Positions 46,787 through 63,940 of a stretch of DNA of 64,000 bases are shown piece by piece (positions within the stretch are counted from its first letter, which is position 1; every line of letters begins with the position of its first letter). The notes under the pieces are model-generated. The model saw only the letters and a list, made by a program, of their open reading frames with translations. It had not been told where the DNA came from and made no database searches. The stretch comes from Candidatus Thermosaccharophagus tengchongensis (lineage in GTDB: Bacteria; Armatimonadota; Fervidibacteria; Fervidibacterales; Thermosaccharophagaceae), in the NCBI GenBank assembly GCA_032161105.1, contig JAVHTD010000009.1. One strand, written 5' to 3'. A program made the translations under genes and the position numbers.

Positions 46787-47057
46787 TCCACCACCTAATT
46801 GCTGCGTGTCTGCAATTGCAAGTGGTCCTCAACCCGGTCTGACAAAGGGCTGCATCAATTCAATTCAACTTTAGCTGCGCGATGCTGCATCCTCGTTTGC
46901 AAAGATAACAGCTTTTGGCAAAGCCGTCAATCACCGCACTGCATGGCGCATGTGCTGTAGAGGGCATCCTTGCAAACTGCTTTACTCGTAAGCTGTGCCA
47001 TCCAAGCTGCGACAATGCTCAATAGCTATGGGCAGCTTTTTGGACCGACATTTTGAA

Positions 47058-47068
47058 TGCGCTATAAT
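47058..47068 (+). promoter_or_regulatory. Putative -10 promoter for the riboswitch operon (TGCGCTATAAT)
   Basis: TATAAT about 70 nt upstream of the aptamer; TTGGAC at 17-bp spacing. Confidence 0.5.
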
Positions 47069-47137
47069 GAAGTGACGATGTTTCTGCATTGCGCCAGTAG
47101 GAGGAACTTCAACTGCTCACAATCAATGCGGTGCGAA

Positions 47138-47318
47138 GCGGGTGGATGAGCGGGAAGACGGTGCAAATCCGTCGCTGCCCCGCAGCTGTGACCGGGGACG
47201 AAACCCGTATGGCGGTGCATTTAACTTGGCACCGTCAAAAGCCACTGGTGGGGCTGATCCCCACTGGGAAGGCACGGGGAGTAGGATGATCCGGGAGCCA
47301 GAAGACCGGTCCACCCGC
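47138..47318 (+). ncRNA. Cobalamin riboswitch
   Basis: GGGAAgacGGTGcAAaTCCgtcgCTGcCCCGCAgCTGTg core, GCCACTG, GGGAAGGC, B12 box GAGCCAGAAGACC; terminal stem gcgggtgga/tccacccgc; upstream of btuF-cobUTS. Confidence 0.93.
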
Positions 47319-47633
47319 GGGAATGCTCGTGCCGCCTCGCGGGAGGGCGATGAGCATGCTCAAAGAGCGGTTTGGCAGACCCCCGGCAAGCTGCTAAGGG
47401 AGCTTCCAAGGATGGGGATGGCTGCCGGGGGTAATTGCTTTATGCACCGCAGCAGCGCCGCATGAATACCCCCGCTGTGTAGGAAGTGCAGCTACTCCCC
47501 ATCTGATGCCTTGGCTTTCTCCGGCAGCAAAGCTTTCGCCATCCATACTCTCAGCCTTGCCGGTGCACTAACACAGTCAAACGCGCTCACCGGTTGTTTG
47601 GCATAACCAAAACCAAAAGCACGGAGGTGCGTC

Positions 47634-48443
47634 GTGATGAGGCGCTATAGGTGCAGCTCAAATTTGGGCTTTGGCGCAGCAAGATGCACAGGACAACAGA
47701 CGCCGGGAGCATTCACGCTAATTGAGCTGCTGGTGGTGATTGCCATAATCGCCATCTTGGCAGCGATATTGTTCCCGGTGTTTGCACGGGCGAGGGAGAA
47801 GGCAAGGCAAGCTTCATGTCAGTCCAACCTGAAGCAGATCGGTCTGGCTTTCCTAATGTATGTCCAAGACTACGATGAAATGGCGATGCCAGTGCAAGTC
47901 AGTGGCGCCGGAAAAACATACTACTGGTGGGGCAGTTGGGATGGGAGCACATTAAATGAACAAGAGGGGCTTCTTTACCCCTACATGAGGAACACGCAAA
48001 TTAGGGCATGTCCATCATTCCCTGAGACATTGCGCACAGCGTTGGGGCTCACAGGATATGGGTATAACTACGCCTACCTATCTCCATACCTTCCACCCGA
48101 CTGGGATGTGCATCCGGTCTCCATAGCCAAGATTCAAAACCCGGCTGAGACGGTTCTTATGGCGGACGCAGCCCGGATAAATACATGGAGCTACCCTCAA
48201 CCAACTTTGGAAGGCAATGCCTACCTTGACCCGCCTTCTTACAGTTACCCTGGCTTTCACGCTCGCCACAATGAGACGGGAAATGTCCTATGGATGGATG
48301 GGCATGTGAAAGCGAGGAAACCGGTATACCGAACCGGGACTTTCGGATGGGGATATAACGCCGATGACTTTCGCAAGAACAATCTCGGCGACATTGATGA
48401 GGATGGCGACCTGACCACAGATGAGCTGTTTGACCTGAACTGA
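47634..48443 (+). CDS. Prepilin-type N-methylation / DUF1559 / H-X9-DG protein
   Basis: [66 protein letters not shown]. Confidence 0.92.
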
Positions 48444-48588
48444 AGCGCAATGCTCACGCCCTGTGCAAGGTGGCTGAGGAATGATTGAGTGAGACTCCCC
48501 TGCGCCTTTGATGCTGGGGCGCAAACAGCCCGTGCAGTTCTAACTGACGGAATGCTGCTGCCAGCACAGACGGTTGAAATGAAAAGGG

Positions 48589-49527
48589 GTGGGCAATGTG
48601 AACGATAGATGTCACTGTGCTGGTGGGCTGATAGCGGTGCTTCTGATGGCGCAAATCTGCGCCCTCTGCACCGCTGAGACAGCTCGTCACGGGTGCGCAG
48701 TCAAAGATGATTTGGGAAGGCTCATCAAACTTGATGTGCTGCCGAAACGCATCATATCGCTCTCGCCGAGCACAACCGAGATACTCTTTGCCATAGGCGC
48801 CGGCAGGCTCGTCGTTGCCGTTGATGATTGGTCCGACTATCCACCTGAAGCACGCCGCTTGCCGAAGGTGGGTCCTTTTATGCGCCCAAGCATTGAGGCT
48901 GTAGTTAAGCATCACCCGGATTTGATCGTGCTCGCATCAGTTGTGCTTCCGATGAGTGAGGTTGAAACGCTTGAGGGGAGGGTGCGTGCGCCAATATTCG
49001 TCATGTCCCCAAGGAGGGTCATTGACATAGTGAGCAGCATTGAGAGAATCGGGATGCTCGTCGGTAAGCAAAAGGAGGCCAAGCTGGTTGCCGATAGGAT
49101 GCGCTCCGACATAAAACGCATCACGGCGATGCAACAAAAGCGCTTCAGGAAGCCGAGTGTGTTCATAGAGGTCTCGCCGCCACCAAGTCTGATGGGCGTC
49201 GGCGCCAACAATTTCATTGATGATGCCATTGAGCTCGCTGGCGGATACAACATCATGAGGCGGCTCAAATCAAGGAGTGAATTCCCAACGGTCAGCCTTG
49301 AGGTGCTGATGGCGCTTAACCCAGATGTTTACATTTTGGCGAGGCACGGTCGTTTGAATTCGGCTCGTGCCCTTTGCGAGGTCAGGGGGAGAAGCGGCTT
49401 TGAGCAACTCAAAGCGGTGCGCATGGGTAGAGTATACGCGCTCAACGCTGATTTGATTTTCAGACCCGGACCGAGGATCACATCGGGGATAGCTGAACTG
49501 CACCGCTTCCTTTATGGACGCAAGTGA
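48589..49527 (+). CDS. btuF: Cobalamin-binding periplasmic protein
   Basis: DDLGR, RIISLSPSTTEILFAIG, SDYPPEA, RPGPRI; in B12 operon. Confidence 0.85.
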   Translation: MGNVNDRCHCAGGLIAVLLMAQICALCTAETARHGCAVKDDLGRLIKLDVLPKRIISLSPSTTEILFAIGAGRLVVAVDDWSDYPPEARRLPKVGPFMRPSIEAVVKHHPDLIVLASVVLPMSEVETLEGRVRAPIFVMSPRRVIDIVSSIERIGMLVGKQKEAKLVADRMRSDIKRITAMQQKRFRKPSVFIEVSPPPSLMGVGANNFIDDAIELAGGYNIMRRLKSRSEFPTVSLEVLMALNPDVYILARHGRLNSARALCEVRGRSGFEQLKAVRMGRVYALNADLIFRPGPRITSGIAELHRFLYGRK

Positions 49528-49568
49528 TGTTTGGTGCGGGCATGATGTTTGTGCCACAGTGTGGGGGT

Positions 49569-50129
49569 ATGAGCATTGTGGGATTAATCACACTACTACT
49601 TGGTGGGGCGCGCAGCGGGAAGAGCAAATTCGCTGTTGAGCTTGCAAGGGGCAATGGAAAAGTGGCTTTCATAGCCACAGCAACATGCACCGATGGCGAA
49701 ATGGAAAAGCGAATTGAAGCGCACAGGCGTTCTCGCCCGAGGGAGTGGCTGACCGTTGAAGAGGCGCTCAATGTATCCGAATGGATTGATGAGCATGGCG
49801 ATGAATTTGATGTGGTGATAATTGACTGCATCACGCTATGGCTCAGCAATTGCCTTGCATTTGGCATGAGCGATGAAGCGATATTGGACGCCGTTGAGAA
49901 GCTGCTCAATGCGTGCAAGGGGCGCAAGTGCAACGCCATCATAGTGAGCAATGAAGTTGGTATGGGAGTTGTCCCAATGACGCACATTGGCAGGCGATTT
50001 AGGGACTTGCTCGGTGAAGCAAATCAAAAGCTCGCCTCATGTGCTGATTGTGTATACTGGCTTTGCGCCGGCATACCGGTGCGTTTAAAGGGGCAAGATT
50101 TGCGCAACTGCCCTCAGGTGAATGAATGA
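49569..50129 (+). CDS. cobU: Adenosylcobinamide kinase / cobinamide-phosphate guanylyltransferase
   Basis: GGARSGKS, DCITLWLSN, VSNEVGMG, FRDLLG..NQ. Confidence 0.95.
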   Translation: MSIVGLITLLLGGARSGKSKFAVELARGNGKVAFIATATCTDGEMEKRIEAHRRSRPREWLTVEEALNVSEWIDEHGDEFDVVIIDCITLWLSNCLAFGMSDEAILDAVEKLLNACKGRKCNAIIVSNEVGMGVVPMTHIGRRFRDLLGEANQKLASCADCVYWLCAGIPVRLKGQDLRNCPQVNE

Positions 50130-50152
50130 AGCGGTGGGCGTGGTGATGCGAT

Positions 50153-51217
50153 GTGGACAACAAAAGCCTTCAAGCACTCTTGAACGCTATAAAGCCGTTG
50201 GATAGGCTATCAATGGTTAAAGCGAGTGAGCGCATGGACAGGCTAACCAAGCCGCTCGGGAGCCTCGGCAAGCTGGAAGACATTGCCGTGCGTGTTGCCG
50301 GAATTACCGGGACACCATTGCCGAGCGTGGAAGGCAAGGCTGTAGTTGTGTTTGCAGCTGATCATGGTGTCACCGCTCAGGGCGTGAGCCTTTACCCGAG
50401 GGAAGTTACGGCGCAAATGGTGATGAATTTCGTCCGTGGCGGCGCGGCGATAAGCGTGCTGAGCAGGCATTGCGGTGCAAGGCTTGTGGTGGTTGATGTT
50501 GGGGTTGCGGCAGAACTGCCACAGCATGATGGTTTGATCTTGAGGAAGGTTGCATGGGGCACAAGGGATCTTTCAACCGAACCAGCAATGACGCTTGAGC
50601 AGGCGATGGAGGCGATTGGCATCGGCGTTGAAGTGACCAAGATGCTTATCAACGATGGCGCACGCATGATCGCCCTCGGTGATATGGGGATAGGCAACAC
50701 AACGCCGAGCGCAGCCATTGCTGCGGTGCTGCTCGGTAAGCCAGCAAGGGATGTGACGGGGAGGGGCACGGGGTTGGATGATGAGCGCTACGAGCATAAG
50801 GTCGCTGTTATTGAAGCAGCATTGAATTTGCACCGTCCAACCCCGGATGACCCAATTGGAGTGCTCACAAAAGTTGGCGGGCTTGAGATTGCGGCGTTAA
50901 TTGGCGTTGTGATAGCTTGTGCGGCGGGGCGAATCCCGGTCGTGCTTGACGGGTTTATCACAACCGCTGCAGCGGCACTCGCATTCAAGATGCAACCGCT
51001 TGTGAGAGAATACATGTTTGCCGGGCATATCTCAATGGAGCCGGGGCACCGCCTGTTGCTTGACTGGCTTGGGCTTGAGCCAATATTGAATCTCAACATG
51101 CGCCTCGGGGAGGGAACTGGTGCTGTCTTGGCGATGCACCTGATTGACGGTGCGTGTAAGCTGCTCTCACAGATGGCTACATTTGATGAGGCGGGTGTTT
51201 CCGGTCCGGTGGCGTAA
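50153..51217 (+). CDS. cobT: Nicotinate-nucleotide--dimethylbenzimidazole phosphoribosyltransferase
   Basis: LTKPLGSLGKLE, FAADHGV, MGIGNTT, MRLGEGTGA. Confidence 0.96.
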   Translation: MDNKSLQALLNAIKPLDRLSMVKASERMDRLTKPLGSLGKLEDIAVRVAGITGTPLPSVEGKAVVVFAADHGVTAQGVSLYPREVTAQMVMNFVRGGAAISVLSRHCGARLVVVDVGVAAELPQHDGLILRKVAWGTRDLSTEPAMTLEQAMEAIGIGVEVTKMLINDGARMIALGDMGIGNTTPSAAIAAVLLGKPARDVTGRGTGLDDERYEHKVAVIEAALNLHRPTPDDPIGVLTKVGGLEIAALIGVVIACAAGRIPVVLDGFITTAAAALAFKMQPLVREYMFAGHISMEPGHRLLLDWLGLEPILNLNMRLGEGTGAVLAMHLIDGACKLLSQMATFDEAGVSGPVA

Positions 51218-51220
51218 GGC

Positions 51221-52012
51221 ATGTTTGTGAAAGCCATATTGTGCAGGTTGCGCAGGGCTGTTAATTGGCACCTTAACACCATATGCTGTGCCATCTCTTT
51301 CCTCACGATTGTGCCGATGCCTCGCCCACACTCGGAAAGCGCCATCAAGATGTGCAGTTGGCTCTTTCCATTTGTCGGGTTGCTCATTGGTGCTCTAATA
51401 GCCACGGTGGACAGCCTGCTTCTTCTGCTCATGCCCGAAAGCGCGACGAGTGCCATAACCGTCGGAATGCTTGCGGCTATCACTGGTGGACTTCACCTTG
51501 ATGGGCTGGCAGATTTGGCGGATGCAATTGGCAGCCTTAAGGACAGGCGGGGGCAACTTGAAGTGATGCGTGATGCGCACATCGGCGCTTTGGGGGCTGC
51601 GAGTGTGTGCATTGTGCTGCTGTTAAAGTATGCCCTCATAGCCTCCGTTAATCCGCCTCTGAGGTGGGTTGCACTCTCGCTTGCGCCGATGCTCGGGAGG
51701 TATTGCGCTGCGCTATCAATGCTCCTCTTCCCGTATGCGCGCTCCGAAGATGGGATAGCCTTTCGCATGAGAGAACACAGGATGGAGCAACTCATCGCGG
51801 CAACGGCATACACAGTCATAGCAGTGCATGCTGCTGCAAGCTATGTCGGGCACATCAGCATGTGGTTGTGCATCGTGATCACCCTCCTCATTTCACTGCG
51901 ATTGACGAAGAGGTTTGGTGGTCTGACCGGCGATTGCTATGGGGCGACGGTTGAAATATGTGAGACGGCATCGTTATTCGCCTTTGCCATGCTGCAAAAG
52001 GTTTTCCTGTGA
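51221..52012 (+). CDS. cobS: Cobalamin synthase
   Basis: FLTIVP, TGGLHLDGLAD, MRD..IGA.G, GGLTGDCYGA. Confidence 0.93.
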   Translation: MFVKAILCRLRRAVNWHLNTICCAISFLTIVPMPRPHSESAIKMCSWLFPFVGLLIGALIATVDSLLLLLMPESATSAITVGMLAAITGGLHLDGLADLADAIGSLKDRRGQLEVMRDAHIGALGAASVCIVLLLKYALIASVNPPLRWVALSLAPMLGRYCAALSMLLFPYARSEDGIAFRMREHRMEQLIAATAYTVIAVHAAASYVGHISMWLCIVITLLISLRLTKRFGGLTGDCYGATVEICETASLFAFAMLQKVFL

Positions 52013-52431: not shown

Positions 52432-53385
52432 ATGGCTGTGAGTTTAAACATCCCGAAGGAGACCTATGTCGGTCGGATAAGGGAAATCACGATTGGCAGC
52501 GGTGATAAGGCGGTGAAAGTTGGCAACGAAGGCTGCCTACCGTTCTACACATTTGAGGGCGAGATGCCAAACCCGGTCCGCATAGCAATGGATGTGTATG
52601 ACTATCCACCTGAGGGCTGGGCGCCTGCGTTGCTTGAAGTTTACGGTGATGTGCTCAACGACCCAATTGCGTGGGCGAAAAAATGCGTTGAGCAATTTGG
52701 CGCTGAGATGATTTGCCTCCAGCTTGCGAGCACTGACCCTTACGGGATGGATAGACCATCCGAGGAGGCGGCACGGATAGCAAAGCAAGTTGCTGATGCA
52801 ATTGATGTGCCGCTCATAATCTGGGGGTGTGGCAACGAGGCAAAGGATGTAGAGACGCTGAGGCTTGTTTGCGAGCTGTGCGAGGGTAAGCGAGTGGTGG
52901 TGGGACCGGTCGTTGAAAAGATCTACGCAAAAGTTGGCGCGCAGGCGATAGCTTATGGGCAAGTTGTGGCAGCCTCCTCGCCAATTGACATTAACCTCGC
53001 AAAGCAACTTAACATACTGCTCTCCAACCTCGGCGTGCCGGATGAGCAAATTTTGATTGACCCGACCGTTGGCGGGCTTGGCTATGGGATTGAATACACA
53101 TATTCGGTGATGGAACGCATCAGAATCGCAGCCCTGCTACACGAGGATGAGCGGCTTGCCTTCCCGATGATTTGCAATGTCGCAAAGGAAGTTTGGGGCA
53201 CAAAGGAAGCCAAGTTGAGCGAGGAGGAAGCGCCACTGCTTGGAAAGGCGAAGGAAAGGGGTATCCTGATGGAAGCAATCACAGCAATGCTGCTTGCGCT
53301 CGCCGGCGCTGATATACTCATCATGCGCCATCCTGACGCAGTTGAGCTTGTCCGGAAGGCTTTGAACGAATTGATGAATGCCTAA
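52432..53385 (+). CDS. acsD: Corrinoid iron-sulfur protein small subunit
   Basis: PFYTFEG, SPIDINLAKQLN, DPT.GGLGYGIEYTYSVMERIR, MRHP. Confidence 0.95.
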   Translation: MAVSLNIPKETYVGRIREITIGSGDKAVKVGNEGCLPFYTFEGEMPNPVRIAMDVYDYPPEGWAPALLEVYGDVLNDPIAWAKKCVEQFGAEMICLQLASTDPYGMDRPSEEAARIAKQVADAIDVPLIIWGCGNEAKDVETLRLVCELCEGKRVVVGPVVEKIYAKVGAQAIAYGQVVAASSPIDINLAKQLNILLSNLGVPDEQILIDPTVGGLGYGIEYTYSVMERIRIAALLHEDERLAFPMICNVAKEVWGTKEAKLSEEEAPLLGKAKERGILMEAITAMLLALAGADILIMRHPDAVELVRKALNELMNA

Positions 53386-53436
53386 TTGCGCAAAGTGCCT
53401 TACGGCGCGATCAATCGGCAAAGGATGGTGATTGAG

Positions 53437-55380
53437 ATGCCTCAAAATAATTACAGCATAGACCCAGCAGTTGTTGAGCTCCTTGAGCGAGCAAAAAGGG
53501 ACGGTGTAATGACAGCCTTTGACAGGGCTGAGGCAATGCGCCCATGCCCAATTGGAAGGGACGGAATATGCTGTAAGCTATGCGCTATGGGACCGTGTCG
53601 CCTGGTTGCACGGAAGGGCGAGGAGCCACCGAGAGGGGTATGCGGTGCAACTCAGGACACAGTTGTGGCGAGGAACTACCTCCGAATAGTGGCGGCTGGA
53701 TGCGCCGCACATGCTGATCACGGGAGGGCTGCAGCCGAGCTTTTGCTTGCGGTAGCTAATGGTGAGACGAAGGACTACGAAATTAAGGACGAGATGAAGC
53801 TGATCAAGCTCGCCATGGACTTCGGGGTTGAGGTATCGGGGCGACGAATTGAGGACATAGCAAGGGATGTGGCGATGTTGGCGCTTGAGGAGTTTGGGAA
53901 GCAGGAGGGCGAATTGGCATTCATCAAGCGTGCACCATTGCGCCGCCAACAGCTTTGGCGAGAACTCGGCATTGTCCCGCGAGGCATTGATAGGGAGATA
54001 ACCGAAGCGTTGCACAGGACACACATGGGCACTGACCAAGATTACGAGAACTTGCTCATGCACGCTGCAAGGGTAGCGCTTGCCGACGGCTGGGGTGGCT
54101 CAATGCTTGCAACCGAAATTCAGGATGTGCTTTTTGGCACTCCCTACCCAACCGTAAGCCAAGTCAACCTCGGCGTTTTAAAGCCAGACCATGTCAACAT
54201 AATCGTGCACGGTCATGAGCCATTGCTCTCGGAAGTAGTCGTGCTCGCTTCAAGGGAGCCGAAGCTTGTAGAGCTCGCGAGGAGCAAGGGTGCAAAGGGA
54301 ATCAACATAGCTGGTATATGTTGCACTGCCAATGAGGTGCTAATGCGCCATGGCATACCGTTAGCCGGAAACTTCCTGCAGCAAGAGGCTGCTCTCCTCA
54401 CTGGCGTGGTTGATGTAATGGTTGTTGATGTGCAGTGCATAATGCAATCGCTGCCTGAGATAGCTGAATGCTATCACGGGCGCATCATAACGACCTCACC
54501 GAGGGCGAAGATAAGGGGCGCAACACACATTGAATTCAACGAGCACAATGCGCTTGACTCCGCAAGGAAGCTCATTGAGATCGCAATTGATGAGTTTGAA
54601 AAGCGCGGTGGGAATGGCTATGTGCCAAACTACGCCGTTGATTTGGTAGCCGGATTCAGTCATGAGACAATCACCTATCTGCTCGGCGGTCTGTTCAGGG
54701 CATCCTATCGCCCATTGAATGACAACATCATCAACGGGCGCATAAGAGGGGTTGCCGGCGTAGTTGGATGCAACAATCCGAGAGTGACTCAGGACAGCGC
54801 CATTGTGACGCTCGTAAAGGAACTCATAAAGAACGATGTTCTCGTCCTTGAGACGGGCTGCGCGGCTATGGCGTGTGCGAAAGCCGGATTGATGAACCCA
54901 GATGAAGCCCTGAAATATACAGGCGATGGTCTTGGTGAGGTCTGTGAGGCGGTTGGCATACCGCCAGTCCTTCATATGGGTTCGTGCGTTGACAACAGCC
55001 GAATATTGATTGCAGCAACAGCGATGGTCAAGGAGGGCGGCTTGGGCGATGACATAAGCGACCTACCCGCAGCCGGTGCAGCACCGGAATGGATGTCGGA
55101 AAAGGCGATAGCCATAGGCATGTATTTCGTTGCGTCGGGCGTCTTCACAGTTTTCGGTGTTCACTATCCGACGCTCGGAAATGAGGCTGTCTCCAACTGG
55201 CTCTTTAGGGATATGGAAAAGCTGTTCAAGGCAAGGTGGGCTTTTGAGCCAGACCCTGAGGAGATGGCGAAATTGATGATCAACCACATTGACCAGAAGC
55301 GCAAGGCACTCGGCATTGATAAGGCGAGGGAGCGAATACTGTTTGACATGGCCATGAGGCGGCAGTTGGAGGCGGTTTAA
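53437..55380 (+). CDS. cooS: Anaerobic [NiFe] carbon monoxide dehydrogenase catalytic subunit
   Basis: CPIG..GICCKLCAMGPC, HGHEP, GICCTANE, GCNN, TGC, GSCVDN, SEKA. Confidence 0.97.
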   Translation: MPQNNYSIDPAVVELLERAKRDGVMTAFDRAEAMRPCPIGRDGICCKLCAMGPCRLVARKGEEPPRGVCGATQDTVVARNYLRIVAAGCAAHADHGRAAAELLLAVANGETKDYEIKDEMKLIKLAMDFGVEVSGRRIEDIARDVAMLALEEFGKQEGELAFIKRAPLRRQQLWRELGIVPRGIDREITEALHRTHMGTDQDYENLLMHAARVALADGWGGSMLATEIQDVLFGTPYPTVSQVNLGVLKPDHVNIIVHGHEPLLSEVVVLASREPKLVELARSKGAKGINIAGICCTANEVLMRHGIPLAGNFLQQEAALLTGVVDVMVVDVQCIMQSLPEIAECYHGRIITTSPRAKIRGATHIEFNEHNALDSARKLIEIAIDEFEKRGGNGYVPNYAVDLVAGFSHETITYLLGGLFRASYRPLNDNIINGRIRGVAGVVGCNNPRVTQDSAIVTLVKELIKNDVLVLETGCAAMACAKAGLMNPDEALKYTGDGLGEVCEAVGIPPVLHMGSCVDNSRILIAATAMVKEGGLGDDISDLPAAGAAPEWMSEKAIAIGMYFVASGVFTVFGVHYPTLGNEAVSNWLFRDMEKLFKARWAFEPDPEEMAKLMINHIDQKRKALGIDKARERILFDMAMRRQLEAV

Positions 55381-55468
55381 AGGGTTACATGGATGCCAAA
55401 TTTGTGGCTGGTCAAAGAAGCATTTGAAAGGCAGCCCATGAGCAGCGCCTGTGGGGAGGGGATATGCG

Positions 55469-57673
55469 ATGTCAAAGTTGATTTGCTCTGCAGCAATCAG
55501 GGGCGCACATAAGATAGTGGCGAGGGCTGAACAAAAGTGGCGAGAGGCGATGGATAGGTGGGGGGCTAAGCAGGAAGTCGGCTTTCCAAACACAGCATAT
55601 TACTTGCCAATCATCTACGGCATAACTGGCATCGCTGTCAAAACGCTCGGCGACATGGAGCAAGTCCTTAAGCTGTGCAGGAGATTGCTCCCGCCGCCGG
55701 TCAGGGAGAAGGTGCACCTTCCGTATCTTGCGCCGGCGCTTGATGCTGGCATGGCTACATTCTTCGCTGAGGAGATAATTGAGGCGATCAAGTATCTTGA
55801 GAATCCGAACATGTATGTTGCGAGCGCGGAAGAGCCAACCGATGAGAACATCTGGCTCGGTGCAGCCGATGATATCATCATGCGAAAGAGGGGCGTTGAA
55901 TTCGTTGATGGAACTGCGCCCGGCTTCGCGGCGATACTCGGTGCACCGCCGGATGTTGATACAGCGGTTCGCATAGCCAGAGAGCTTCAGGAGAAGAACC
56001 TGTATGTCTTCATGTGCTCGGATAACAACGGCGTGAGGATGGCTGAGCAACTTGTGGAAGCCGGCGTGCAAATTGGATGGACGACAAGGCTTGTTCCATT
56101 TGGTCCGGATACCTCGGCGACCGTCTTCTCAATCGGCTTTGCCACGAGGGTCGCAATGGCATTTGGTGGTATAAAGCCCGGCGAGTATAGGCGCATCCTC
56201 ATCTACAACAAGGATAGGGTTTTTGCGTTTGTCCTTGCGCTTGGCTTTGTGACCGACGAATGGTATGCTAATGCGGCTGGGGCAATAAATTGGGGCTTCC
56301 CGACGATAGCCGACACACCCATACCGCAAGTTCTCCCGACGGGCATTTGCACATACGAACATGTTGTCTCAAATGTGCCACACTCGGAGATCGTTTCAAA
56401 GGCAATTGAGGTGCGCGGTCTCAAGGTGACTGTGACCAAGGTGCCAGTGCCAGTTGCCTATGGACCAGCGTTCGAAGGCGAGAGGGTGCGTAAGGCTGAT
56501 CTGTATGTTGAATTTGGTGGCAATAGGTCGCTTGCACTTGAACTTTGCAGGATGCGGCGCATGGATGAAGTGCAAGACGGCAAGATTGAGATCGTCGGTC
56601 CAGACATTGATACTGCCGAAGAGGGCGGTGCAATGCCGCTCGCAATACTCGTTGAGATTGCCGGAAGGAGGATGCAGGAGGACTTTGAGCCGATACTTGA
56701 GCGTCAGATACATCACTTCATCAACTACGCTCAGGGCATCTTCCACATGGGGCAGCGTGATATAGTTTGGTTGCGCATAAGCAAGGGCGCATTCAATCAG
56801 GGCTTCAGGCTCAGACACATTGGAGAGATACTACACGCAAGGTTCCATCAGGACTTTGGAAACATTCTGGACAAGGTTCAAATCACCATATTCACCAACG
56901 AGGAGGATGTGCGCAGGTTGCTTGATGAGGCACGGGCAATATACCATGCAAGGGATGCGCGCATGGAGGGCATGAGAGATGAGGATGTGGACATATTCTA
57001 CTCGTGTGTGCTCTGTCAATCATTTGCGCCAACGCATGTCTGCGTCATAAGCCCAGAGCGCCCGGGATTGTGCGGCGCATACACATGGCTTGATGCGAAG
57101 GCAATGTATGAAGTCAATCCGGAGGGACCAAACCAACCAGTCCAATATGGTGAGTGCATAGACCCGCTCAAGGGTGCATGGAAAGGCGTGAACGAGTTCG
57201 TTAAGAAAGCCTCAAGGGGTGCAATTGATGGCTATAACTTCTACAGCGTTGTGGATAGCCCTATGACAACATGCGGTTGCTGTGAGTGCATAACTGCTGT
57301 CTTGCCGTTGTGCAACGGCGTCATGACTGTAAACCGAGAATACATGGGCATGACGCCGTGCGGTATGAAGTTCACGACGCTCGCCGGAACAATCGGCGGT
57401 GGAGTCAGCACGCCGGGGTTCGTCGGGCATGCGAAGATTTGGATTGTGCAAAGGAAGTGGCTTCAAGGTGATGGCGGGATAAAGAGGCTCGTTTGGATGC
57501 CCAAGATGTTGAAGGAGGAGCTCGGTGAGAGGTTGGTCAAGCGCCTCGCCGAAGTCGGGATGTCGGTTGACATGATTGCCGACGAGACAGTCGGCACTAC
57601 CGAAGAGGAGATATTGCCATACCTGCAGGAGAAAGGGCATCCGGCGCTCGAGATGCCGCCGATAATTGGGTGA
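55469..57673 (+). CDS. acsB: Acetyl-CoA synthase (bacterial type, with N-terminal domain)
   Basis: FPNTAYYLP, CVLCQSFAPTHVC, CGAYTW, PMTTCGCCEC, TPGFVG. Confidence 0.97.
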   Translation: MSKLICSAAIRGAHKIVARAEQKWREAMDRWGAKQEVGFPNTAYYLPIIYGITGIAVKTLGDMEQVLKLCRRLLPPPVREKVHLPYLAPALDAGMATFFAEEIIEAIKYLENPNMYVASAEEPTDENIWLGAADDIIMRKRGVEFVDGTAPGFAAILGAPPDVDTAVRIARELQEKNLYVFMCSDNNGVRMAEQLVEAGVQIGWTTRLVPFGPDTSATVFSIGFATRVAMAFGGIKPGEYRRILIYNKDRVFAFVLALGFVTDEWYANAAGAINWGFPTIADTPIPQVLPTGICTYEHVVSNVPHSEIVSKAIEVRGLKVTVTKVPVPVAYGPAFEGERVRKADLYVEFGGNRSLALELCRMRRMDEVQDGKIEIVGPDIDTAEEGGAMPLAILVEIAGRRMQEDFEPILERQIHHFINYAQGIFHMGQRDIVWLRISKGAFNQGFRLRHIGEILHARFHQDFGNILDKVQITIFTNEEDVRRLLDEARAIYHARDARMEGMRDEDVDIFYSCVLCQSFAPTHVCVISPERPGLCGAYTWLDAKAMYEVNPEGPNQPVQYGECIDPLKGAWKGVNEFVKKASRGAIDGYNFYSVVDSPMTTCGCCECITAVLPLCNGVMTVNREYMGMTPCGMKFTTLAGTIGGGVSTPGFVGHAKIWIVQRKWLQGDGGIKRLVWMPKMLKEELGERLVKRLAEVGMSVDMIADETVGTTEEEILPYLQEKGHPALEMPPIIG

Positions 57674-57706
57674 TGCAGACCGAATGATGTAGAGGGGGCA
57701 TGAGAT

Positions 57707-59062
57707 ATGCCATTGAGTGGCATTGAGATATTCAAGCTGCTTCCAAAAAAGAACTGCGGTGAGTGTGGCGTGCCAACATGCCTTGCATTTGCAATGAACT
57801 TGGCGCAGGGCAAGGCTGAACTTGATGCATGCCCATACATCTCCGATGAGGCAAGGGAAAAGCTGGCTGAGGTTGCTGCACCTCCAATTAGGGAAGTTGT
57901 CATAGGCAGTGATGGCAGAGTTGTGAAAGTCGGCGGTGAAACCGTCCTCTTCAGGCACGAGAAGACATTCGTCAACCCGCCCGGAATAGCCATGCTCATC
58001 AGCGATACGATGGACGATAGCGAAATTGATGCTCGCATTGACAGGATCAACAGCATGGTCTATGACAGAGCCGGATTCATATTGCGCCCTGAGATAGCCG
58101 CGCTGCGCTGCGACTCCGGCAGCAAGGAAAGGTTCACCGATGTAGTCGGGCGGATCATCAGCAGTTCAGATTGCAGCATCATGCTCATCAGCTATGACCC
58201 ATCAATTCAATGTGCTGCGCTTGAGGTATGCAAAGCGAAGCGCCCGCTAATTTACGCCGCCACCAGTGAGAACATTGATGAGATGATGGAGCTGGCAAAG
58301 GAGTATGCATGTCCGCTGGCTGTAAAGGGGAATGGCTTGAGCGAAGTTGCGAGGTTGACATCAACAGCCATTCAAGCCGGCTTAAAGGACCTCCTAATTG
58401 ACACCGGCGCACGCTCGCTCAAGGAGGCTTTCGTGCATCACATAATGCTGAGGAGGGGCGCCCTCATAGGCAAGATTAGGGAGCTTGGCTTCCCGACGGT
58501 TGTCATGGCGTGCGAAATGAGCGACGACCTTTTGATGCAGACGCTCATTGGGGCGATATTCATTGCCAAGTATGGCGGCATAATTGTCCTCTCGGATTTC
58601 CAAGGGCACTCGCTTTATCCGCTCCTGCTTGCGAGGATGAACATTTACACAGACCCGAGAAAGCCGCTTGCAGTTGAAGAGGGCATCTACGAGATAGGAA
58701 AGCCAACGGAAGAATCGCCCGTGCTGCTGACCTGCAACTTTTCTCTCACATACTTCCTCGTCTCAACCGAGATAGAAAACAGCCGAGTGCCATCATGGTT
58801 GCTGGTCAAGGATACCGAGGGGCTTTCGGTGATGACCGCATGGGCTGGCGGCAAATTCACAGCGGATGTGATTGCTCCATTCATCAAGAAGTGCGGCATT
58901 GAGAGCAGAGTTAAGCACCGCAAGCTGATCATACCGGGCTATCTTGCACCCGAGAGCGGCGCGCTTGAAGAGGAACTTGGCGGTGAATGGGAGATACTTG
59001 TCGGTCCAAGAGAAGCAGCAAACATACCTGCATATTTGCGCACCGTCTGGCAAGCTGCCTGA
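57707..59062 (+). CDS. acsC: Corrinoid iron-sulfur protein large subunit
   Basis: LPKKNCGECGVPTCLAFA, FRHEKTF, NFSLTYF, SVMTAWAGGKF. Confidence 0.96.
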   Translation: MPLSGIEIFKLLPKKNCGECGVPTCLAFAMNLAQGKAELDACPYISDEAREKLAEVAAPPIREVVIGSDGRVVKVGGETVLFRHEKTFVNPPGIAMLISDTMDDSEIDARIDRINSMVYDRAGFILRPEIAALRCDSGSKERFTDVVGRIISSSDCSIMLISYDPSIQCAALEVCKAKRPLIYAATSENIDEMMELAKEYACPLAVKGNGLSEVARLTSTAIQAGLKDLLIDTGARSLKEAFVHHIMLRRGALIGKIRELGFPTVVMACEMSDDLLMQTLIGAIFIAKYGGIIVLSDFQGHSLYPLLLARMNIYTDPRKPLAVEEGIYEIGKPTEESPVLLTCNFSLTYFLVSTEIENSRVPSWLLVKDTEGLSVMTAWAGGKFTADVIAPFIKKCGIESRVKHRKLIIPGYLAPESGALEEELGGEWEILVGPREAANIPAYLRTVWQAA

Positions 59063-59225
59063 GGTCAATGCAACCTCGTCATAAAGGTTGCTGAATGCGA
59101 ATTGAAGGGTGCCCTATGTGGGGCGGGATCTTCCATTGCAGTTAACTCCGCGCCTTAAGTGAGCTTGTTTGGCGATGGCTATATTGCACGGGCGGGAAAA
59201 TCGCCCTATGCAGGGGTGGTGAGAG

Positions 59226-60104
59226 ATGATCCTTGTGGGTGAGAACATCAACATCATGTCAAAGACGATAGGGGCTGCGATAAGAAATCGCGATGCGGCT
59301 ACAATACAGCAGCTTGCAAGGCAGCAAGCGGGAGCCGGGATGGATTACCTTGACCTCAACATTGGGCCGGCGAGGAGAGACGGTCCCGAGCTTATGGAGT
59401 GGATAGTTAAGACGGTGCAAGAGGTCGTTGAATTGCCGCTGTCACTTGATACAACGAATCCGGATGCAATGGAAGCCGGCTTGAAGGTGCACCGTGGTAA
59501 GGCGATCATCAACTCAATCTCACTTCAACCGGAGAGGCTTGAGAGGATGCTTCCACTTGCCAAGCAATATGGCGCTGCAGTTGTCGGACTGCTGTGGGGC
59601 ACCGAGGGAATGCCGAGGGATGCGGATGACCGTGCCGCATTATGCGTTGAACTTGTCCAAAGGGTTATGGATGCCGGCGTCCCGCCGGAGGACATCCTGA
59701 TTGACCCCATTGTCACACCAGTTTCAGCCGACATAGGGCAGGTGATTGCGGTAGTTGAGTTCATGAGCGCCTTTAAGGACCTTGCGCCCGGATGCAAGTC
59801 CATCGTCGGCTTATCAAATGTCTCCAATGGAACTCCAACTGAGCTGCGCCCACATTTGAATCGTGCATACCTTGCGATGCTCATGAAGTATGGCTTAGAT
59901 GCGGCGATAGTCAACGCTTTTGATGAGGAGTTGGTTAAGCTCGCAAGGGGTGAGATGCCGGAGATACTGAACTTGGTTCACCGCATAATGGATGGCGAAA
60001 GATTTGATGTGAACGAGTTGCCCGAGAAAGAGCGCATATACGCAAAGACGACGCTTGTGCTCATGGGAAAAGTCGTTTACTCGCACTCGTGGCTTGAAGC
60101 CTGA
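59226..60104 (+). CDS. acsE: Methyltetrahydrofolate:corrinoid methyltransferase
   Basis: Pterin-binding barrel: GENIN, LDLNIG, LSLDTTN, IINS, DP, GLSNVS; acs context. Confidence 0.88.
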   Translation: MILVGENINIMSKTIGAAIRNRDAATIQQLARQQAGAGMDYLDLNIGPARRDGPELMEWIVKTVQEVVELPLSLDTTNPDAMEAGLKVHRGKAIINSISLQPERLERMLPLAKQYGAAVVGLLWGTEGMPRDADDRAALCVELVQRVMDAGVPPEDILIDPIVTPVSADIGQVIAVVEFMSAFKDLAPGCKSIVGLSNVSNGTPTELRPHLNRAYLAMLMKYGLDAAIVNAFDEELVKLARGEMPEILNLVHRIMDGERFDVNELPEKERIYAKTTLVLMGKVVYSHSWLEA

Positions 60105-60215
60105 GCCGAGTTCCGTGCACCATTTGAGTAATGCTAAACATCCATGTTGGGATCGGAAACACAAGACGCAATTTGCGCTTCTAACTTAAGCCTCTAATTT
60201 TGGGCTGTAAGAGCC

Positions 60216-60875
60216 GTGAGGGTGATGATGCCATTCAACACCATCCCAAAGGATGAGCATGAGGGGCACAAAATAGCCTATGAACTCTCAAAGGAAGGCT
60301 TGAGGGCGCTTGATATCAAACTGCAATGTGAACTTGCTGGTGCGCACTTTGTTGAGGGGGAGCGTAAAGCTCGCCTGAAGCTGCTCGGTGATGTCTACGA
60401 AATTTCGCTTCCTGATTGCGATGTCAGGTGTGTGACGGATGAGGATGCACCAATCCACCTGAAGATACTCGCATTGCACTACCTCACACAAGCCACCGGT
60501 AAGCCGCTCACAGGCAGGTTGATTGACTTTAGGGAATTGCCCGGCGGGATCGCTTACCATGTGAGCTTTGATAGCCGCGTGAAGAAGCCGCTAATAAACG
60601 CATTTGGTGATGACGATGGGAGCAAGTTGCGCCAAGCTGCTATGCGCCTTGATGCGGAAGATGTGAACTACGGCGATGTCGGATTGAGGATATGGGCGCT
60701 ACCGAAGGTGCCAATCATAATCGCCTTCTGGGCAGCAGATGAGGAGATGCCGGCGAGCATCAGCATCCTCTTTGACTCATCCATATCGGACTATCTTACA
60801 ACCGAGGATGTGGCAGTCCTCGGCGAGCACTTAGCCGAGAAACTCATAACCGCAGCTAAAACGATGCAGCGGTAA
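60216..60875 (+). CDS. DUF3786 family protein
   Basis: ILALHYL, FRELPGG, LPKVP...W..DEE.PA....LFD......L..ED. Confidence 0.8.
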   Translation: MRVMMPFNTIPKDEHEGHKIAYELSKEGLRALDIKLQCELAGAHFVEGERKARLKLLGDVYEISLPDCDVRCVTDEDAPIHLKILALHYLTQATGKPLTGRLIDFRELPGGIAYHVSFDSRVKKPLINAFGDDDGSKLRQAAMRLDAEDVNYGDVGLRIWALPKVPIIIAFWAADEEMPASISILFDSSISDYLTTEDVAVLGEHLAEKLITAAKTMQR

Positions 60876-60968
60876 AATTTTGATTCCCTGTGAGATGGCC
60901 GGGGCTAATTCAAAGCCGCTGAATGTGGACGATTTCAGCCGTTTGAGTGAAGGGGGCGAAATGACAAG

Positions 60969-61712
60969 GTGCACATTTCAATTGCTGGGAAGGGTGGCAC
61001 AGGAAAGACAACATTTGCCGCTCTGCTCATAAAGTGGCTTGCCGAAAATGGCAAAGGACCGATATTGGCGATTGATGCTGACCCAAACTCAAACTTAAAT
61101 GAAGCCCTCGGCATGGAAGTCAACGCATACATTGCCGACATACTCTCGCGGGTGCGCACGGCGGCTCCATCGCCCAACATGCCGAAGTTGCGCATGATTG
61201 AGTATCAACTGCACGAAGTCATCACCGAAGGTGACAAAGTTGACCTGCTTGCAATGGGTGGACCTGAAGGTCCGGGATGCTATTGCGCTGCCAATCAAAT
61301 GCTGCGCGATTTCATTGAGCGGCTGCGCCCAAGCTATGCCTATCTCGTGATGGATAACGAAGCCGGGATGGAGCATTTGAGCAGGCGCGTTGCGCAGGAT
61401 GTTGACATCCTGTTCATAATGAGCGACCCGACAGTGAAGGGCATACGCTCCTCTGGAAGGATTGCCGCTTTGGCTAAGTCACTTGAACTCAGCGTGCGAA
61501 GGGTATATCTCGTGCTTAACAGGGCAGGGGAAGATGCGGTTGAAGCGCTCTCCGATGAGATTGAGAAGACGAGATTGGAACTCGCCGGAGTCATACCTGA
61601 GGATGAACTCATCATCAAGTATGACATTGAGGGACGACCGCTGGTGGAGCTCCCGCACGATAGCCTCGCATACAAAGCTGTGCGTGAGATAGCGCAGAGG
61701 GTAATCGGATGA
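60969..61712 (+). CDS. cooC: CooC/AcsF nickel-insertion ATPase
   Basis: GKGGTGKTT, IDADP, GPGCYC, DNEAGMEHLSR. Confidence 0.93.
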   Translation: MHISIAGKGGTGKTTFAALLIKWLAENGKGPILAIDADPNSNLNEALGMEVNAYIADILSRVRTAAPSPNMPKLRMIEYQLHEVITEGDKVDLLAMGGPEGPGCYCAANQMLRDFIERLRPSYAYLVMDNEAGMEHLSRRVAQDVDILFIMSDPTVKGIRSSGRIAALAKSLELSVRRVYLVLNRAGEDAVEALSDEIEKTRLELAGVIPEDELIIKYDIEGRPLVELPHDSLAYKAVREIAQRVIG

Positions 61713-61990
61713 CCGATGTGTTAAATTGTTCACGATGGCTGTCCCGCTTTGAACTGTCATTTGAGATGCTCAAATGTTAGCCGCAAGCAATTCGCAACGA
61801 GTCGGAACACATCAAGATGCGTCAGGAACGAGGGAGCTTCCATTTGCCATTCACTTATATGGTTGGCAACGGCTGAAGAGCGAGCAAGCGAGGGTGTATG
61901 TTCAATTGCAAGTCCTCACTCCTCATGAGCAGATGCGCTTACATGCCGTTACCTACGAGGCAGCGATGAAATTCGGGAGGGTGAGCATCG

Positions 61991-63940
61991 GTGCCGCTCA
62001 GGAGGATACGGTTTCTTCCAGAGGGCGTCTCAATCTTCGTTGAAGAGAGCACACCGGTCCTTCTGGCTGCGAGGGATGCCGGCATTGAAATAGCGAGCGT
62101 TTGCGGCGGTCAGGGCACCTGTGGGAAATGCCTTGTGAGGTTGCTCTCGGGCAAGGCGCGCATGACGGAAAGGGTGTCAATGATTAGTGAAGAGTTGCGT
62201 TCAGAGGGATACACGCTCGCATGCCAAACATTCCCAGTTGAGGACTTGGTTGTTGAAGTCCCAGTTGAATCGCGCTTGGCGTTTTCCGAGGAGGCGATCA
62301 AGCACATTGAGCTTGAAGTTCCAGAACACGAAGCCGGGTTAAATGTTTACCCACCGAGCCCGATGGCGATCAAAGTGCATATCAAAATGCACCCGCCATC
62401 GCTCACCGACAACATCAGCGATTTGACAAGGTTGCTTAATGCCGTGAAGCGAACGCTAAGCGAGAAGCAAGGGCTCACGGGGGCGCAATTTGACATTGGG
62501 CGTCCAATGAGGGCGAGCATCAATGCCCTCCGACAACTGCCATTTGCTGCAAGGGCTGGTGGCTGGGAAGTGACGGTCACTTTGGTGAACTGCCTTGACT
62601 ATTGGGAGGTTGTAAGGATAACCCCCGGCGTTGACGAGAGGCATGTTTATGGCGCCGCAATTGATGTGGGAACAACGACAGTCACAGTTCACATCGTTGA
62701 CTTGAAAACCTTTGAGACAGTTCAGCGGCTGGCAAAGTATAACGAACAGTTTGTCTTTGGTGAGGATGTGATAAGCCGAATAGCGTATGCCTCTCGCAAC
62801 GCGAATGGCTTGAATGAGCTGCGTGAGGCTGCCTTGAAGACCATCAATTCGCTTCTGAAGCACGCTGTAAGTTCACTTGGCATATCGCACGATGACATAG
62901 CATGTGCAACTGTTGCGGGCAATACCATCATGACGCATCTTTTGCTCGGCATTGACCCAGCGAACATACGCATAGAACCATACATCCCAGCCGCCACTGT
63001 ATTCCCACCGCTGAAGGCAAGCGATGCCGGGATCGCCATCCATCAGGATGGATGTGTCCTCATATTTCCATGTGTTGCCAGCTATGTTGGCGGCGATATT
63101 GTGGCTGGCACTCTCATCTCCGGGATGTCACTGCGAGATGAAATCTGCCTTCTGATTGACATGGGGACGAATGGTGAGATGGTTCTCGGGAACAGGGACT
63201 TCATGGTGGCGTGCGCATGCTCCATAGGTCCGGCATTTGAGGGCAGCGGAATAACTTGCGGTATGCGCTCCGTTAGGGGCGCAATATCCAGTGTCAGGAT
63301 TGATCCAAAAAACCTTGATGTGAGCGTTAAAACCATAGGAGATGCAAAGCCGATTGGGATATGCGGCTCTGGGCTTGTTGACCTGCTCGCCGAAATGAGG
63401 CATGCCAACATCATTGACATGGCTGGCAACTTCGCTGAGCGTAATGGCAGCGGGAGGCTGAGGCAGACTGCCGACGGCGATTTGGAGTTTGTGCTTATGC
63501 GCTCAAAAGATGCCGGCATAGCCCGTGACATCACGATAACACAATCGGACATAAAGAACTTGATTCGCTCAAAGGCAGCCGTGTATGCCGCGCTCAGGTC
63601 CATGCTGAATTCAATCGGGATGGAAGTTAACCAGATAAAGCGCATCTTCGTTGCGGGTGCATTCGGAAGCCATTTGAATGTTCGTGGGGCGATTGAAATA
63701 GGCTTGCTTCCGGACATCGCTGAGGATAGGTTCATCGTGCTCGGCAACAGCTCGGTCAAAGGTGCACGGCTGGCTCTGCTGTCACGGGCAGCATTTGACG
63801 AGGCGCATAGGATCGCATCAAAAATGACATACATTGAGCTAAGCGTTGACCCGGGTTATATGAGCGAGTTCATTTCGGCAAACTTCATACCGCACACGGA
63901 CTTGCGCCAATTCCCATCGGTCAAATTGGATGCGAGGTGA
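61991..63940 (+). CDS. acsV: Reductive activator of corrinoid proteins (RACo/AcsV; 2Fe-2S plus ASKHA ATPase)
   Basis: CGGQGTCGKC...LAC, IDVGTTT, GEDVISR, YVGGD, DMGTNGE, GPAFEG, GICGSG, AGAFG. Confidence 0.92.
   Translation: MPLRRIRFLPEGVSIFVEESTPVLLAARDAGIEIASVCGGQGTCGKCLVRLLSGKARMTERVSMISEELRSEGYTLACQTFPVEDLVVEVPVESRLAFSEEAIKHIELEVPEHEAGLNVYPPSPMAIKVHIKMHPPSLTDNISDLTRLLNAVKRTLSEKQGLTGAQFDIGRPMRASINALRQLPFAARAGGWEVTVTLVNCLDYWEVVRITPGVDERHVYGAAIDVGTTTVTVHIVDLKTFETVQRLAKYNEQFVFGEDVISRIAYASRNANGLNELREAALKTINSLLKHAVSSLGISHDDIACATVAGNTIMTHLLLGIDPANIRIEPYIPAATVFPPLKASDAGIAIHQDGCVLIFPCVASYVGGDIVAGTLISGMSLRDEICLLIDMGTNGEMVLGNRDFMVACACSIGPAFEGSGITCGMRSVRGAISSVRIDPKNLDVSVKTIGDAKPIGICGSGLVDLLAEMRHANIIDMAGNFAERNGSGRLRQTADGDLEFVLMRSKDAGIARDITITQSDIKNLIRSKAAVYAALRSMLNSIGMEVNQIKRIFVAGAFGSHLNVRGAIEIGLLPDIAEDRFIVLGNSSVKGARLALLSRAAFDEAHRIASKMTYIELSVDPGYMSEFISANFIPHTDLRQFPSVKLDAR

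Follow-up and report, generated by a model that had tools for sequence, protein, structure and literature searches.

The locus

We analyzed a 64,000-nucleotide (nt) stretch of DNA (the window) from Candidatus Thermosaccharophagus tengchongensis, contig JAVHTD010000009.1 of assembly GCA_032161105.1, in which a cobalamin riboswitch precedes a gene for a prepilin-type DUF1559/H-X9-DG protein (the pilin-like protein) and genes for a BtuF-like protein, CobU, CobT and CobS. A preliminary description, made from the sequence alone, had placed all of these on one strand with no TonB-dependent receptor among them, and had proposed that the pilin-like protein binds corrinoids in place of the receptor BtuB. 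Searches with Rfam, Pfam and NCBIfam models confirmed the arrangement. The riboswitch itself is real, but the start assigned to it, 47138, lies 15 nt inside the aptamer, which begins at 47123. The leader and the operon contain the following features.

47041-47068, + strand: sigma-70-like promoter candidate TGGACC-16-TATAAT, 55 nt 5' of the aptamer (consensus scan, 10 of 12 matches; a pattern match only)
47123-47328, + strand: cobalamin riboswitch aptamer, RF00174 (87.8 bits against a gathering threshold of 31.5, E 2.6e-20, full length over model positions 1-189)
47380-47443, + strand: candidate expression platform, terminator-like, with the hairpin CCCCCGGCA...TGCCGGGGG (47380-47431) followed by a T-rich tail
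47634-48443, + strand: prepilin-type DUF1559/H-X9-DG protein, 269 amino acids, start codon GTG at 47634 or ATG at 47637 (PF07963, PF07596, TIGR02532, TIGR04294)
48589-49527, + strand: BtuF-like periplasmic binding protein (Peripla_BP_2) with a hydrophobic N-terminus (PF01497, 99 bits)
49524-50129, + strand: CobU, adenosylcobinamide kinase/guanylyltransferase (PF02283, 192 bits; NF004469, 185.4 bits, cut-off 161)
50153-51217, + strand: CobT, nicotinate-nucleotide:dimethylbenzimidazole phosphoribosyltransferase (PF02277, 462.8 bits; TIGR03160, 456, cut-off 319)
51221-52012, + strand: CobS, adenosylcobinamide-GDP ribazoletransferase (PF02654, 174 bits; TIGR00317, 138.9, cut-off 110)

We label the second gene BtuF-like from its context, because its product scores 82.9 bits with the NCBIfam BtuF model NF002894, under the cut-off of 234. 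It begins 145 nt past the DUF1559 gene, and the same BtuF-like gene comes 3' of the DUF1559 gene in genomes G001-G003, G015 and G038. A Pfam search of the operon's open reading frames (ORFs) found neither a Plug/TonB-dependent receptor nor a FecCD gene.

RF00174 was the sole Rfam family at gathering level in a scan of the whole window, and the host genome (2.74 Mb in 44 contigs, 97.4% complete) has one RF00174 match, that at 47123-47328. The start codon of the DUF1559 gene lies 306 nt beyond the aptamer; a consensus scan, which is a weak test, found no promoter-like site in the interval. The same pattern scan, equally weak, turned up nothing resembling a terminator in the stretch from the pilin-like gene to btuF. 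In many relatives the DUF1559 gene begins no more than about 60 nt past the aptamer. Because this is the only aptamer in the genome, no promoter-like site was found in the gap and the spacing in many relatives is short, the prediction that the aptamer directly controls the DUF1559 gene is supported. Downstream of the aptamer, the hairpin at 47380-47431 is present in the minimum-free-energy fold of 47300-47460, and its segment is conserved in a leader alignment of four genomes of the genus. In G001 and G002 both arms are altered (CCCCCAC...GTGGC[A/G]GGGG) and the T-runs are clearer. We infer that the leader hairpin and its T-rich tail would act as a transcription-terminator platform.

Conservation of the riboswitch-DUF1559 pairing

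We searched 40 relatives with the pilin-like protein and recovered an orthologue group in 20 genomes, at 57% identity or more, full length, and with scores of at least 265 bits; the next-best matches reach at most 184 bits. At 13 of the 20 orthologue loci, a gathering-level cobalamin-clan riboswitch lies immediately upstream on the same strand. When wider flanks were taken, another six proved to carry the aptamer roughly 3.5 kb upstream of the gene, at the head of an nrdA-nrdB-DUF1559 operon. The twentieth genome, G033, carries two copies, one of which is closely preceded by an RF00174 match that falls under the threshold (22.6 bits, E 0.056). The best matches in nine more distant families of the phylum gave a similar picture, with a cobalamin-clan riboswitch upstream in eight of the nine.

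The riboswitch-nrdA-nrdB-DUF1559 order belongs to six genomes of the family of Ca. Fervidibacter canadensis (G005), at L035 4071-8571, L037 7213-11717 (-), L040 7607-12059 (-), L036, L038 and L039. In G005 the pilin-like gene lies 12 nt past nrdB, in an operon for a class I, B12-independent ribonucleotide reductase.

In the reverse direction, we surveyed RF00174 in 151 Armatimonadota genomes, 147 of which had a match. The survey took the best 150 of about 203 matches, the 53 lowest-scoring lying outside it, and examined the DNA downstream of 126 further riboswitches (120 regions); one 67-nt fragment match was dropped, and region L117 ends at a contig end. An ORF was called DUF1559-like if it matched a profile of alignment A1 (hmmsearch, E < 1e-5) on the same strand no more than 2.3 kb downstream. 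Such an ORF follows 67 of the 126 riboswitches, and it comes first, within 400 nt, at 63 of them. In the four other cases it comes later, after a PduO-type adenosyltransferase or an ORF without a family. Tallied by genome, a riboswitch-linked DUF1559 gene is present in at least 87 of the 151 sampled Armatimonadota genomes and in 30 of 39 family codes, the count being a minimum where a family's riboswitches fell outside the matches listed. The linkage is therefore not unique to this genome; uniqueness was the outcome that the preliminary description had named as telling against its own proposal.

The operons vary in what accompanies the DUF1559 gene. It may stand alone, precede BtuF or BtuF and an ABC ATPase, or follow either NrdAB or a PduO-type adenosyltransferase. 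This DUF1559 subfamily belongs to the B12 regulon as a conserved member, alongside genes for uptake, salvage and the sparing of B12. At three loci, L153 (G099), L165 (G141) and L154 (G149), a single riboswitch precedes a tandem pair of DUF1559 genes; the second copies group in a sister clade of their own, with the unusual FALSEL or FAPSEL in place of FTLIEL at the N-terminus.

The named records with close relatives of the protein are Armatimonadota (Candidatus Fervidibacter canadensis, Ca. Caldisaccharidevorator, Fimbriimonas, Capsulimonadaceae, Abditibacterium and 'WS1'), which bears out the earlier placement of the host in that phylum. Of 17 named loci, nine show a cobalamin-clan riboswitch no more than 2.5 kb upstream, and the misses include an nrdAB-type Fervidibacter locus and loci cut by contig ends. 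We also sampled Planctomycetota (101 genomes, the phylum of a Phycisphaerales genome), where DUF1559 is the first gene at four of the 30 best-scoring riboswitch loci (L241, L256, L259 and L263). The gene is second behind the riboswitch in the Phycisphaerales genome and first in one Victivallales genome. Most other Planctomycetota loci begin with a TonB-dependent receptor, Peripla_BP_2 or proteins without a family. The first genes in that phylum include those for a DUF4465 protein, two HEAT-repeat proteins, and PKD or TIG domain proteins (L257:325-1110 (-), L246:416-1258, L251:1707-2534, L238, L254).

Other genes behind the riboswitch

The other 58 first genes of the Armatimonadota survey encode 19 TonB-dependent receptors, nine Peripla_BP_2 proteins, four CobU, two CobD and three NrdD proteins, four PduO-type adenosyltransferases and one of CobA type, three Dockerin/DUF5074 or YncE-like proteins, two PEP-CTERM proteins and seven proteins without a family. 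Single cases are a ThiC-family enzyme, an ABC ATPase, ExbB and a homocysteine methyltransferase domain. Four genomes have the order riboswitch-PduO-TonB-dependent receptor, whereas G118 has riboswitch-PduO-DUF1559. The observed gene orders support the conclusion that the DUF1559 gene fills operon slots held by a TonB-dependent receptor in other Armatimonadota.

Several of the remaining first genes encode secreted-looking proteins without a family. These include proteins of 427-437 amino acids with Dockerin and DUF5074 or a YncE-like beta-propeller (L070:435-1727, L094:574-1887 (-), L086:814-2097 (-)) and 327-amino-acid PEP-CTERM proteins (L168:1069-2052 (-), L178:1070-2053 (-)); they may be further B12-capture proteins. 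Locus L079 (G107:C50:3909-14063) carries four cobalamin riboswitches in 10 kb, with genes for CobU, CobD, a ThiC-family radical SAM enzyme and a TonB-dependent receptor.

Phylogeny of the riboswitch-linked proteins

We built a FastTree tree of 155 rows, comprising 93 riboswitch-linked proteins, the G033 orthologue and 61 paralogues of six genomes; it leaves out the riboswitch-linked genes of G008, G025, G031, G032, G034 and G035. In this tree a single group of 96 rows contains 92 of the 93 linked proteins, and the linkage label changes three times, compared with 48.9 times in shuffles. A quick IQ-TREE tree under LG+G4, with 35 linked representatives and all 61 paralogues, separated 34 linked rows by one branch from all of the paralogues, and here the label changes twice, compared with 28.7 times in shuffles. 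On the strength of both trees, the riboswitch-linked group behaves as one subfamily with modest support. The preliminary description had asked whether such proteins form one clade, and they do group together in each tree, if weakly supported. The linked protein that falls outside, from G148 (L088, G148:C40:16187-18673), has a long branch and may have arisen by fusion or been recruited independently.

The pilin-like protein

The protein is over the cut-offs of both N-terminal methylation models, PF07963 (N_methyl; 23.6 bits, cut-off 21.2) and TIGR02532 (24.9 bits, cut-off 16.3). It also exceeds those of PF07596 (DUF1559; 41.7 bits, cut-off 23.3), though this alignment spans profile positions 2-52 of 268 only, and of TIGR04294 (H-X9-DG; 22 bits, cut-off 19, residues 208-227). 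The leader is predicted to run through A26, with the prepilin peptidase cut before F27, and the N-terminal methylation segment is invariant or nearly so in the orthologue alignment. The GspG model TIGR01710 gave 34.6 bits against a cut-off of 88.85, through the N-terminal helix only. Pfam searches found no DUF4465 (PF14717) in the protein, and no match to PF07715 or PF00593; it is not a member of the BtuB family, and may act in BtuB's place.

All of the motifs singled out in the preliminary description (YYWWGSW, GYGYNY, TFGWGY and DIDEDGD) are in the translation. The aromatic ones are specific to the linked group only in part. Residues conserved specifically in the riboswitch-linked group (P0001 numbering) are G112, G141, Y144, N145, Y148, D178, P201, R211 and G252, with G141/Y144/N145/Y148 and R211 among the residues that mark the group. 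On the other hand, W98, Y117 and the H-X9-DG motif itself (H212-x9-D222-G223-H224) are common to linked proteins and paralogues, as are C62, C126, Y76 and D79. The C-terminal LGDIDxDGxxxTDELFDL is limited to closer orthologues; its acidic loop DIDEDGD is reminiscent of the Ca site of GspG.

An AlphaFold2 model of residues 52-269, made from an alignment of 43 mature domains, has a predicted local distance difference test (pLDDT) score of 93.4 and a predicted template modeling (pTM) score of 0.90. An exhaustive VIA-align search with this model was led by type IV pilins and pseudopilins: PilA4 (6xxd, Z 5.5), ComP (5hz7, Z 4.9) and PilV (5v23, Z 4.4), with further pseudopilin matches to EpsG (4lw9, Z 4.3) and PulG (5wda, Z 3.4). 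Because each match aligns about 80-100 of 218 residues, we read the model as a pilin-like core in which roughly half of the domain consists of family-specific insertions. Taken by themselves the Z values fall short of proof of a pilin-like core, but they agree with the N-terminal motif.

Host genome and neighboring genes

The preliminary description had suggested a search of the genome for btuB. Pfam found no Plug domain in the whole host genome, and hence no Plug-domain receptor. The same domain is missing from all 15 sampled genomes of families f1 and f2 and present in 77 of the 151 genomes of the phylum. Profile searches of the host genome found neither CbiC nor DUF4465. The genome encodes one B12-binding domain protein, and one FecCD permease that lies away from the operon on contig C20. 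It also encodes four secretins, two prepilin peptidases (Peptidase_A24) and 12 T2SSE-family (PilB/PilT-like) proteins, three of them of PilT-like size. From this inventory, the host needs corrinoids and can finish cobinamide, lacks ring synthesis and the usual receptor, and has an outer membrane with secretins. We considered cobalt transport and set it aside: with no CbiC, cobalt would be useless for corrin synthesis, and the operon is one of cobinamide salvage.

DUF1559 has 34 Pfam matches in the host genome and 110 in one relative. In the host genome (G000) some of the other 33 DUF1559 paralogues have T2SSE-type ATPase genes within 4-7 kb (C5 16929/21394; C14 61827/68953; C22 4304/7831), and the gene of one secretin is 3 kb away from that of a prepilin peptidase; such sites may encode machines for the DUF1559 family.

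Directly 3' of cobS, after a gap of 420 nt to the AcsD-like gene, the window continues with genes of corrinoid consumers identified by Pfam.

52432-63940, + strand: corrinoid-consumer context, beginning with AcsD-like (52432), CODH (53386), ACS (55451) and AcsC-like corrinoid Fe-S protein (57707)
Rest of the same context, + strand: pterin-binding methyltransferase (59226), DUF3786, CooC-like ATPase and RACo corrinoid activator (61991)

A complete carbonyl-branch cluster thus adjoins the salvage operon, so that corrinoid supply and use are encoded side by side. The cobS-CdhD order recurs in G001.

A proposed role in corrinoid capture

Because the gene belongs to the B12 regulon and occupies slots of BtuB-type receptors, corrinoid acquisition is the most economical function for it. 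We consider it somewhat more likely than not that the DUF1559 protein is a corrinoid-capture component that would move B12-type cofactors across the envelope, ahead of the BtuF-like protein and CobU-CobT-CobS. A fuller model, drawn by analogy with DNA-uptake pili, is considerably more tentative, and we think it doubtful as a whole: import would be TonB-independent and pilus-powered, with a B12-specific DUF1559 pilin binding its ligand outside the cell and the fiber retracting through a secretin to BtuF.

In the sequence of steps that we propose, ample adenosylcobalamin would lead the aptamer to favor the terminator-like hairpin, and the operon would be off. When B12 is scarce, the cell would produce the prepilin, prepilin peptidase would cleave it ahead of F27, and its hydrophobic helix would anchor it. 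It would then join a type IV pilus-like or pseudopilus fiber, or the tip of one, passing through an outer-membrane secretin. The globular domain, with its group-specific G-Y-x-Y-N-x-x-Y and R-H motifs, would bind the corrinoid, and retraction or diffusion would bring it to the BtuF-like protein and the FecCD-type permease of contig C20. CobU, CobT and CobS would complete the cobamide, to be used by the corrinoid Fe-S protein in the adjoining acetyl-CoA synthase cluster.

Parts of this scheme have known counterparts. As in btuB/BtuF/BtuCD uptake of the Escherichia coli type, a cobalamin riboswitch would repress a putative envelope uptake gene, and a BtuF-like protein and a FecCD-type permease are present. 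The first gene here, however, encodes a 269-amino-acid pilin-like protein with no Plug or barrel domain, of which the whole genome has none, and we infer that energy would come from pilus ATPases rather than TonB. DNA-uptake type IV pili offer a second comparison. ComP of Neisseria is a DNA-binding minor pilin, and it is the second-best structural match; a secretin and PilT-sized ATPases are also found here. The cargo in our case would be a vitamin, not DNA, and the match to ComP is to the generic pilin core only. GspG, EpsG and PulG likewise have a similar N-terminal helix and pilin core, but the globular domain here is about twice as large, and TIGR01710 is under its cut-off. The protein is a member of the DUF1559/H-X9-DG proteins of Planctomycetota, Verrucomicrobiota and Armatimonadota, with N_methyl, DUF1559 and H-X9-DG all over their cut-offs, and differs from the rest in belonging to a riboswitch-tied subgroup with its own residues (G112, G141, Y144, N145, Y148 and R211).

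The best functional analogy is with BtuG, BtuH and BtuJ (DUF4465) of Bacteroides, surface corrinoid-capture lipoproteins of riboswitch-controlled btu loci (PMC13398666). As would hold for the pilin-like protein, these are B12-repressed accessory surface proteins encoded beside core transporter genes. There is no relation in sequence or fold: Pfam matches in our protein are limited to N_methyl and DUF1559, and the genome has no DUF4465. The Bacteroides proteins are lipoproteins that feed BtuB, whereas ours has a prepilin helix and no BtuB to feed. A literature search, with subscription-only papers and bioRxiv supplements outside it, found no paper linking DUF1559 or pilins to cobalamin riboswitches. 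The accessible text of PMC2667541 contains no pilin link, and that of PMC13398666 has no mention of pilin, DUF1559, Planctomycetes, PEP-CTERM or Armatimonadota.

A number of observations weigh against corrinoid capture by this protein, or at least against its simplest form. All of the functional support is by association, and the operon contains no pilus-machinery gene. The leader hairpin has an energy z-score of -0.58, which is not distinctive for G+C-rich sequence. Related genomes are not independent, so our counts overstate the number of independent events. In the FastTree tree the group has a support of 89 with three paralogues at its base, the IQ-TREE branch has a weak Shimodaira-Hasegawa-like approximate likelihood ratio test (SH-aLRT) value of 68, and the riboswitch-linked G148 protein (614 amino acids) is outside the clade. 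Foldseek found nothing in the PDB at E <= 0.001, and the structural matches are weak, with Z of 5.5 or less over the partial alignments given above. A complex prediction for BtuF-like residues 34-312 with the DUF1559 domain scored 0.01 against a mark of 0.32, which speaks neither for nor against binding.

The relation to TonB-dependent receptors is also looser than first supposed. G099 and G141 each have a riboswitch-TonB-dependent receptor operon and a separate riboswitch-DUF1559 operon, and a Plug-domain protein of some kind occurs in 36 of the 87 genomes with the linkage. We therefore rejected strict mutual exclusion, the two-by-two table of riboswitch-DUF1559 by any Plug domain being 36, 51, 41 and 23. 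The idea that the protein replaces BtuB keeps its basis in the shared receptor slots and the lack of a Plug domain in this host, but as a rule of strict substitution it is too simple.

Alternative explanations

Another account would make the protein a membrane-tethered periplasmic binding protein, anchored in the inner membrane by its helix, that binds corrinoids after they have crossed the outer membrane in some other way and passes them to BtuF or the permease. The gene is often monocistronic and never accompanied by pilus-machinery genes in the operons we examined, PF07596 has the Pfam short name SBP_bac_10, and a BtuF-like gene follows DUF1559 in some genomes only, all of which would suit a tethered binder. 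We nevertheless consider it unlikely, since it leaves the passage of a B12-sized molecule through the outer membrane unexplained in a genome without a Plug receptor, the operon itself supplies a BtuF-like binding protein, and the genome has secretins and PilB/PilT-like ATPases. Less probable still, the protein would be a pseudopilin that does not itself bind corrinoids and serves a type II secretion-like machine, through which separate B12 scavengers are exported under B12 scarcity. This reading would fit with the secreted-looking Dockerin/DUF5074, YncE-like and PEP-CTERM proteins encoded by riboswitch-first genes in other Armatimonadota, and with the DUF4465 gene that comes first at a Planctomycetota locus, DUF4465 domains being B12 binders according to PMC13398666. 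Against it, the host genome has no DUF4465 and the operon no such gene, many of the operons are monocistronic, secretion alone would not need a dedicated B12-specific clade, and the GspG score is far under the cut-off.

A response to B12 starvation other than transport, such as an adhesion or aggregation pilin directed toward B12-producing neighbors, or remodeling of the surface, seems to us quite improbable. Pilins commonly mediate adhesion, and the linkage to nrdAB in six genomes is of the starvation type, a substitution and not an uptake gene; but the gene recurs with BtuF, an ABC ATPase, CobU/T/S and an adenosyltransferase, and in the slots of TonB-dependent receptors. The gene could, finally, be an incidental neighbor inserted between the riboswitch and btuF-cobUTS, the genes really controlled. 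The 306-nt and 145-nt gaps on either side of it, and the 34 paralogues in the genome, give such an insertion some plausibility. The pairing in at least 87 of 151 genomes, including operons with nothing else, and the grouping of the linked proteins make it scarcely credible, and we rejected it, together with a genome-unique linkage, on the conservation data. Corrinoid capture by the DUF1559 protein remains the reading that we favor.

Implications

DUF1559/H-X9-DG proteins are among the most expanded families of Armatimonadota and Planctomycetota, and neither a ligand nor a role has been assigned to them. Because a riboswitch tells us what it binds, a conserved B12 riboswitch before one DUF1559 clade points to a corrinoid as the ligand to test. 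The host cannot make the corrin ring, having no CbiC, yet runs a corrinoid-dependent acetyl-CoA synthase. If our reading is correct, it would explain how bacteria without TonB-dependent receptors import a 1.3-kDa vitamin, and would bear on B12 cross-feeding in hot-spring and soil communities. It would also add a new kind of vitamin-uptake component and hint at the role of the rest of the DUF1559 family. Should pilus import itself prove true, the DUF1559/H-X9-DG paralogues, which number from dozens to hundreds in Armatimonadota, Planctomycetota and their neighbors, would be a repertoire of ligand-specific uptake pilins.

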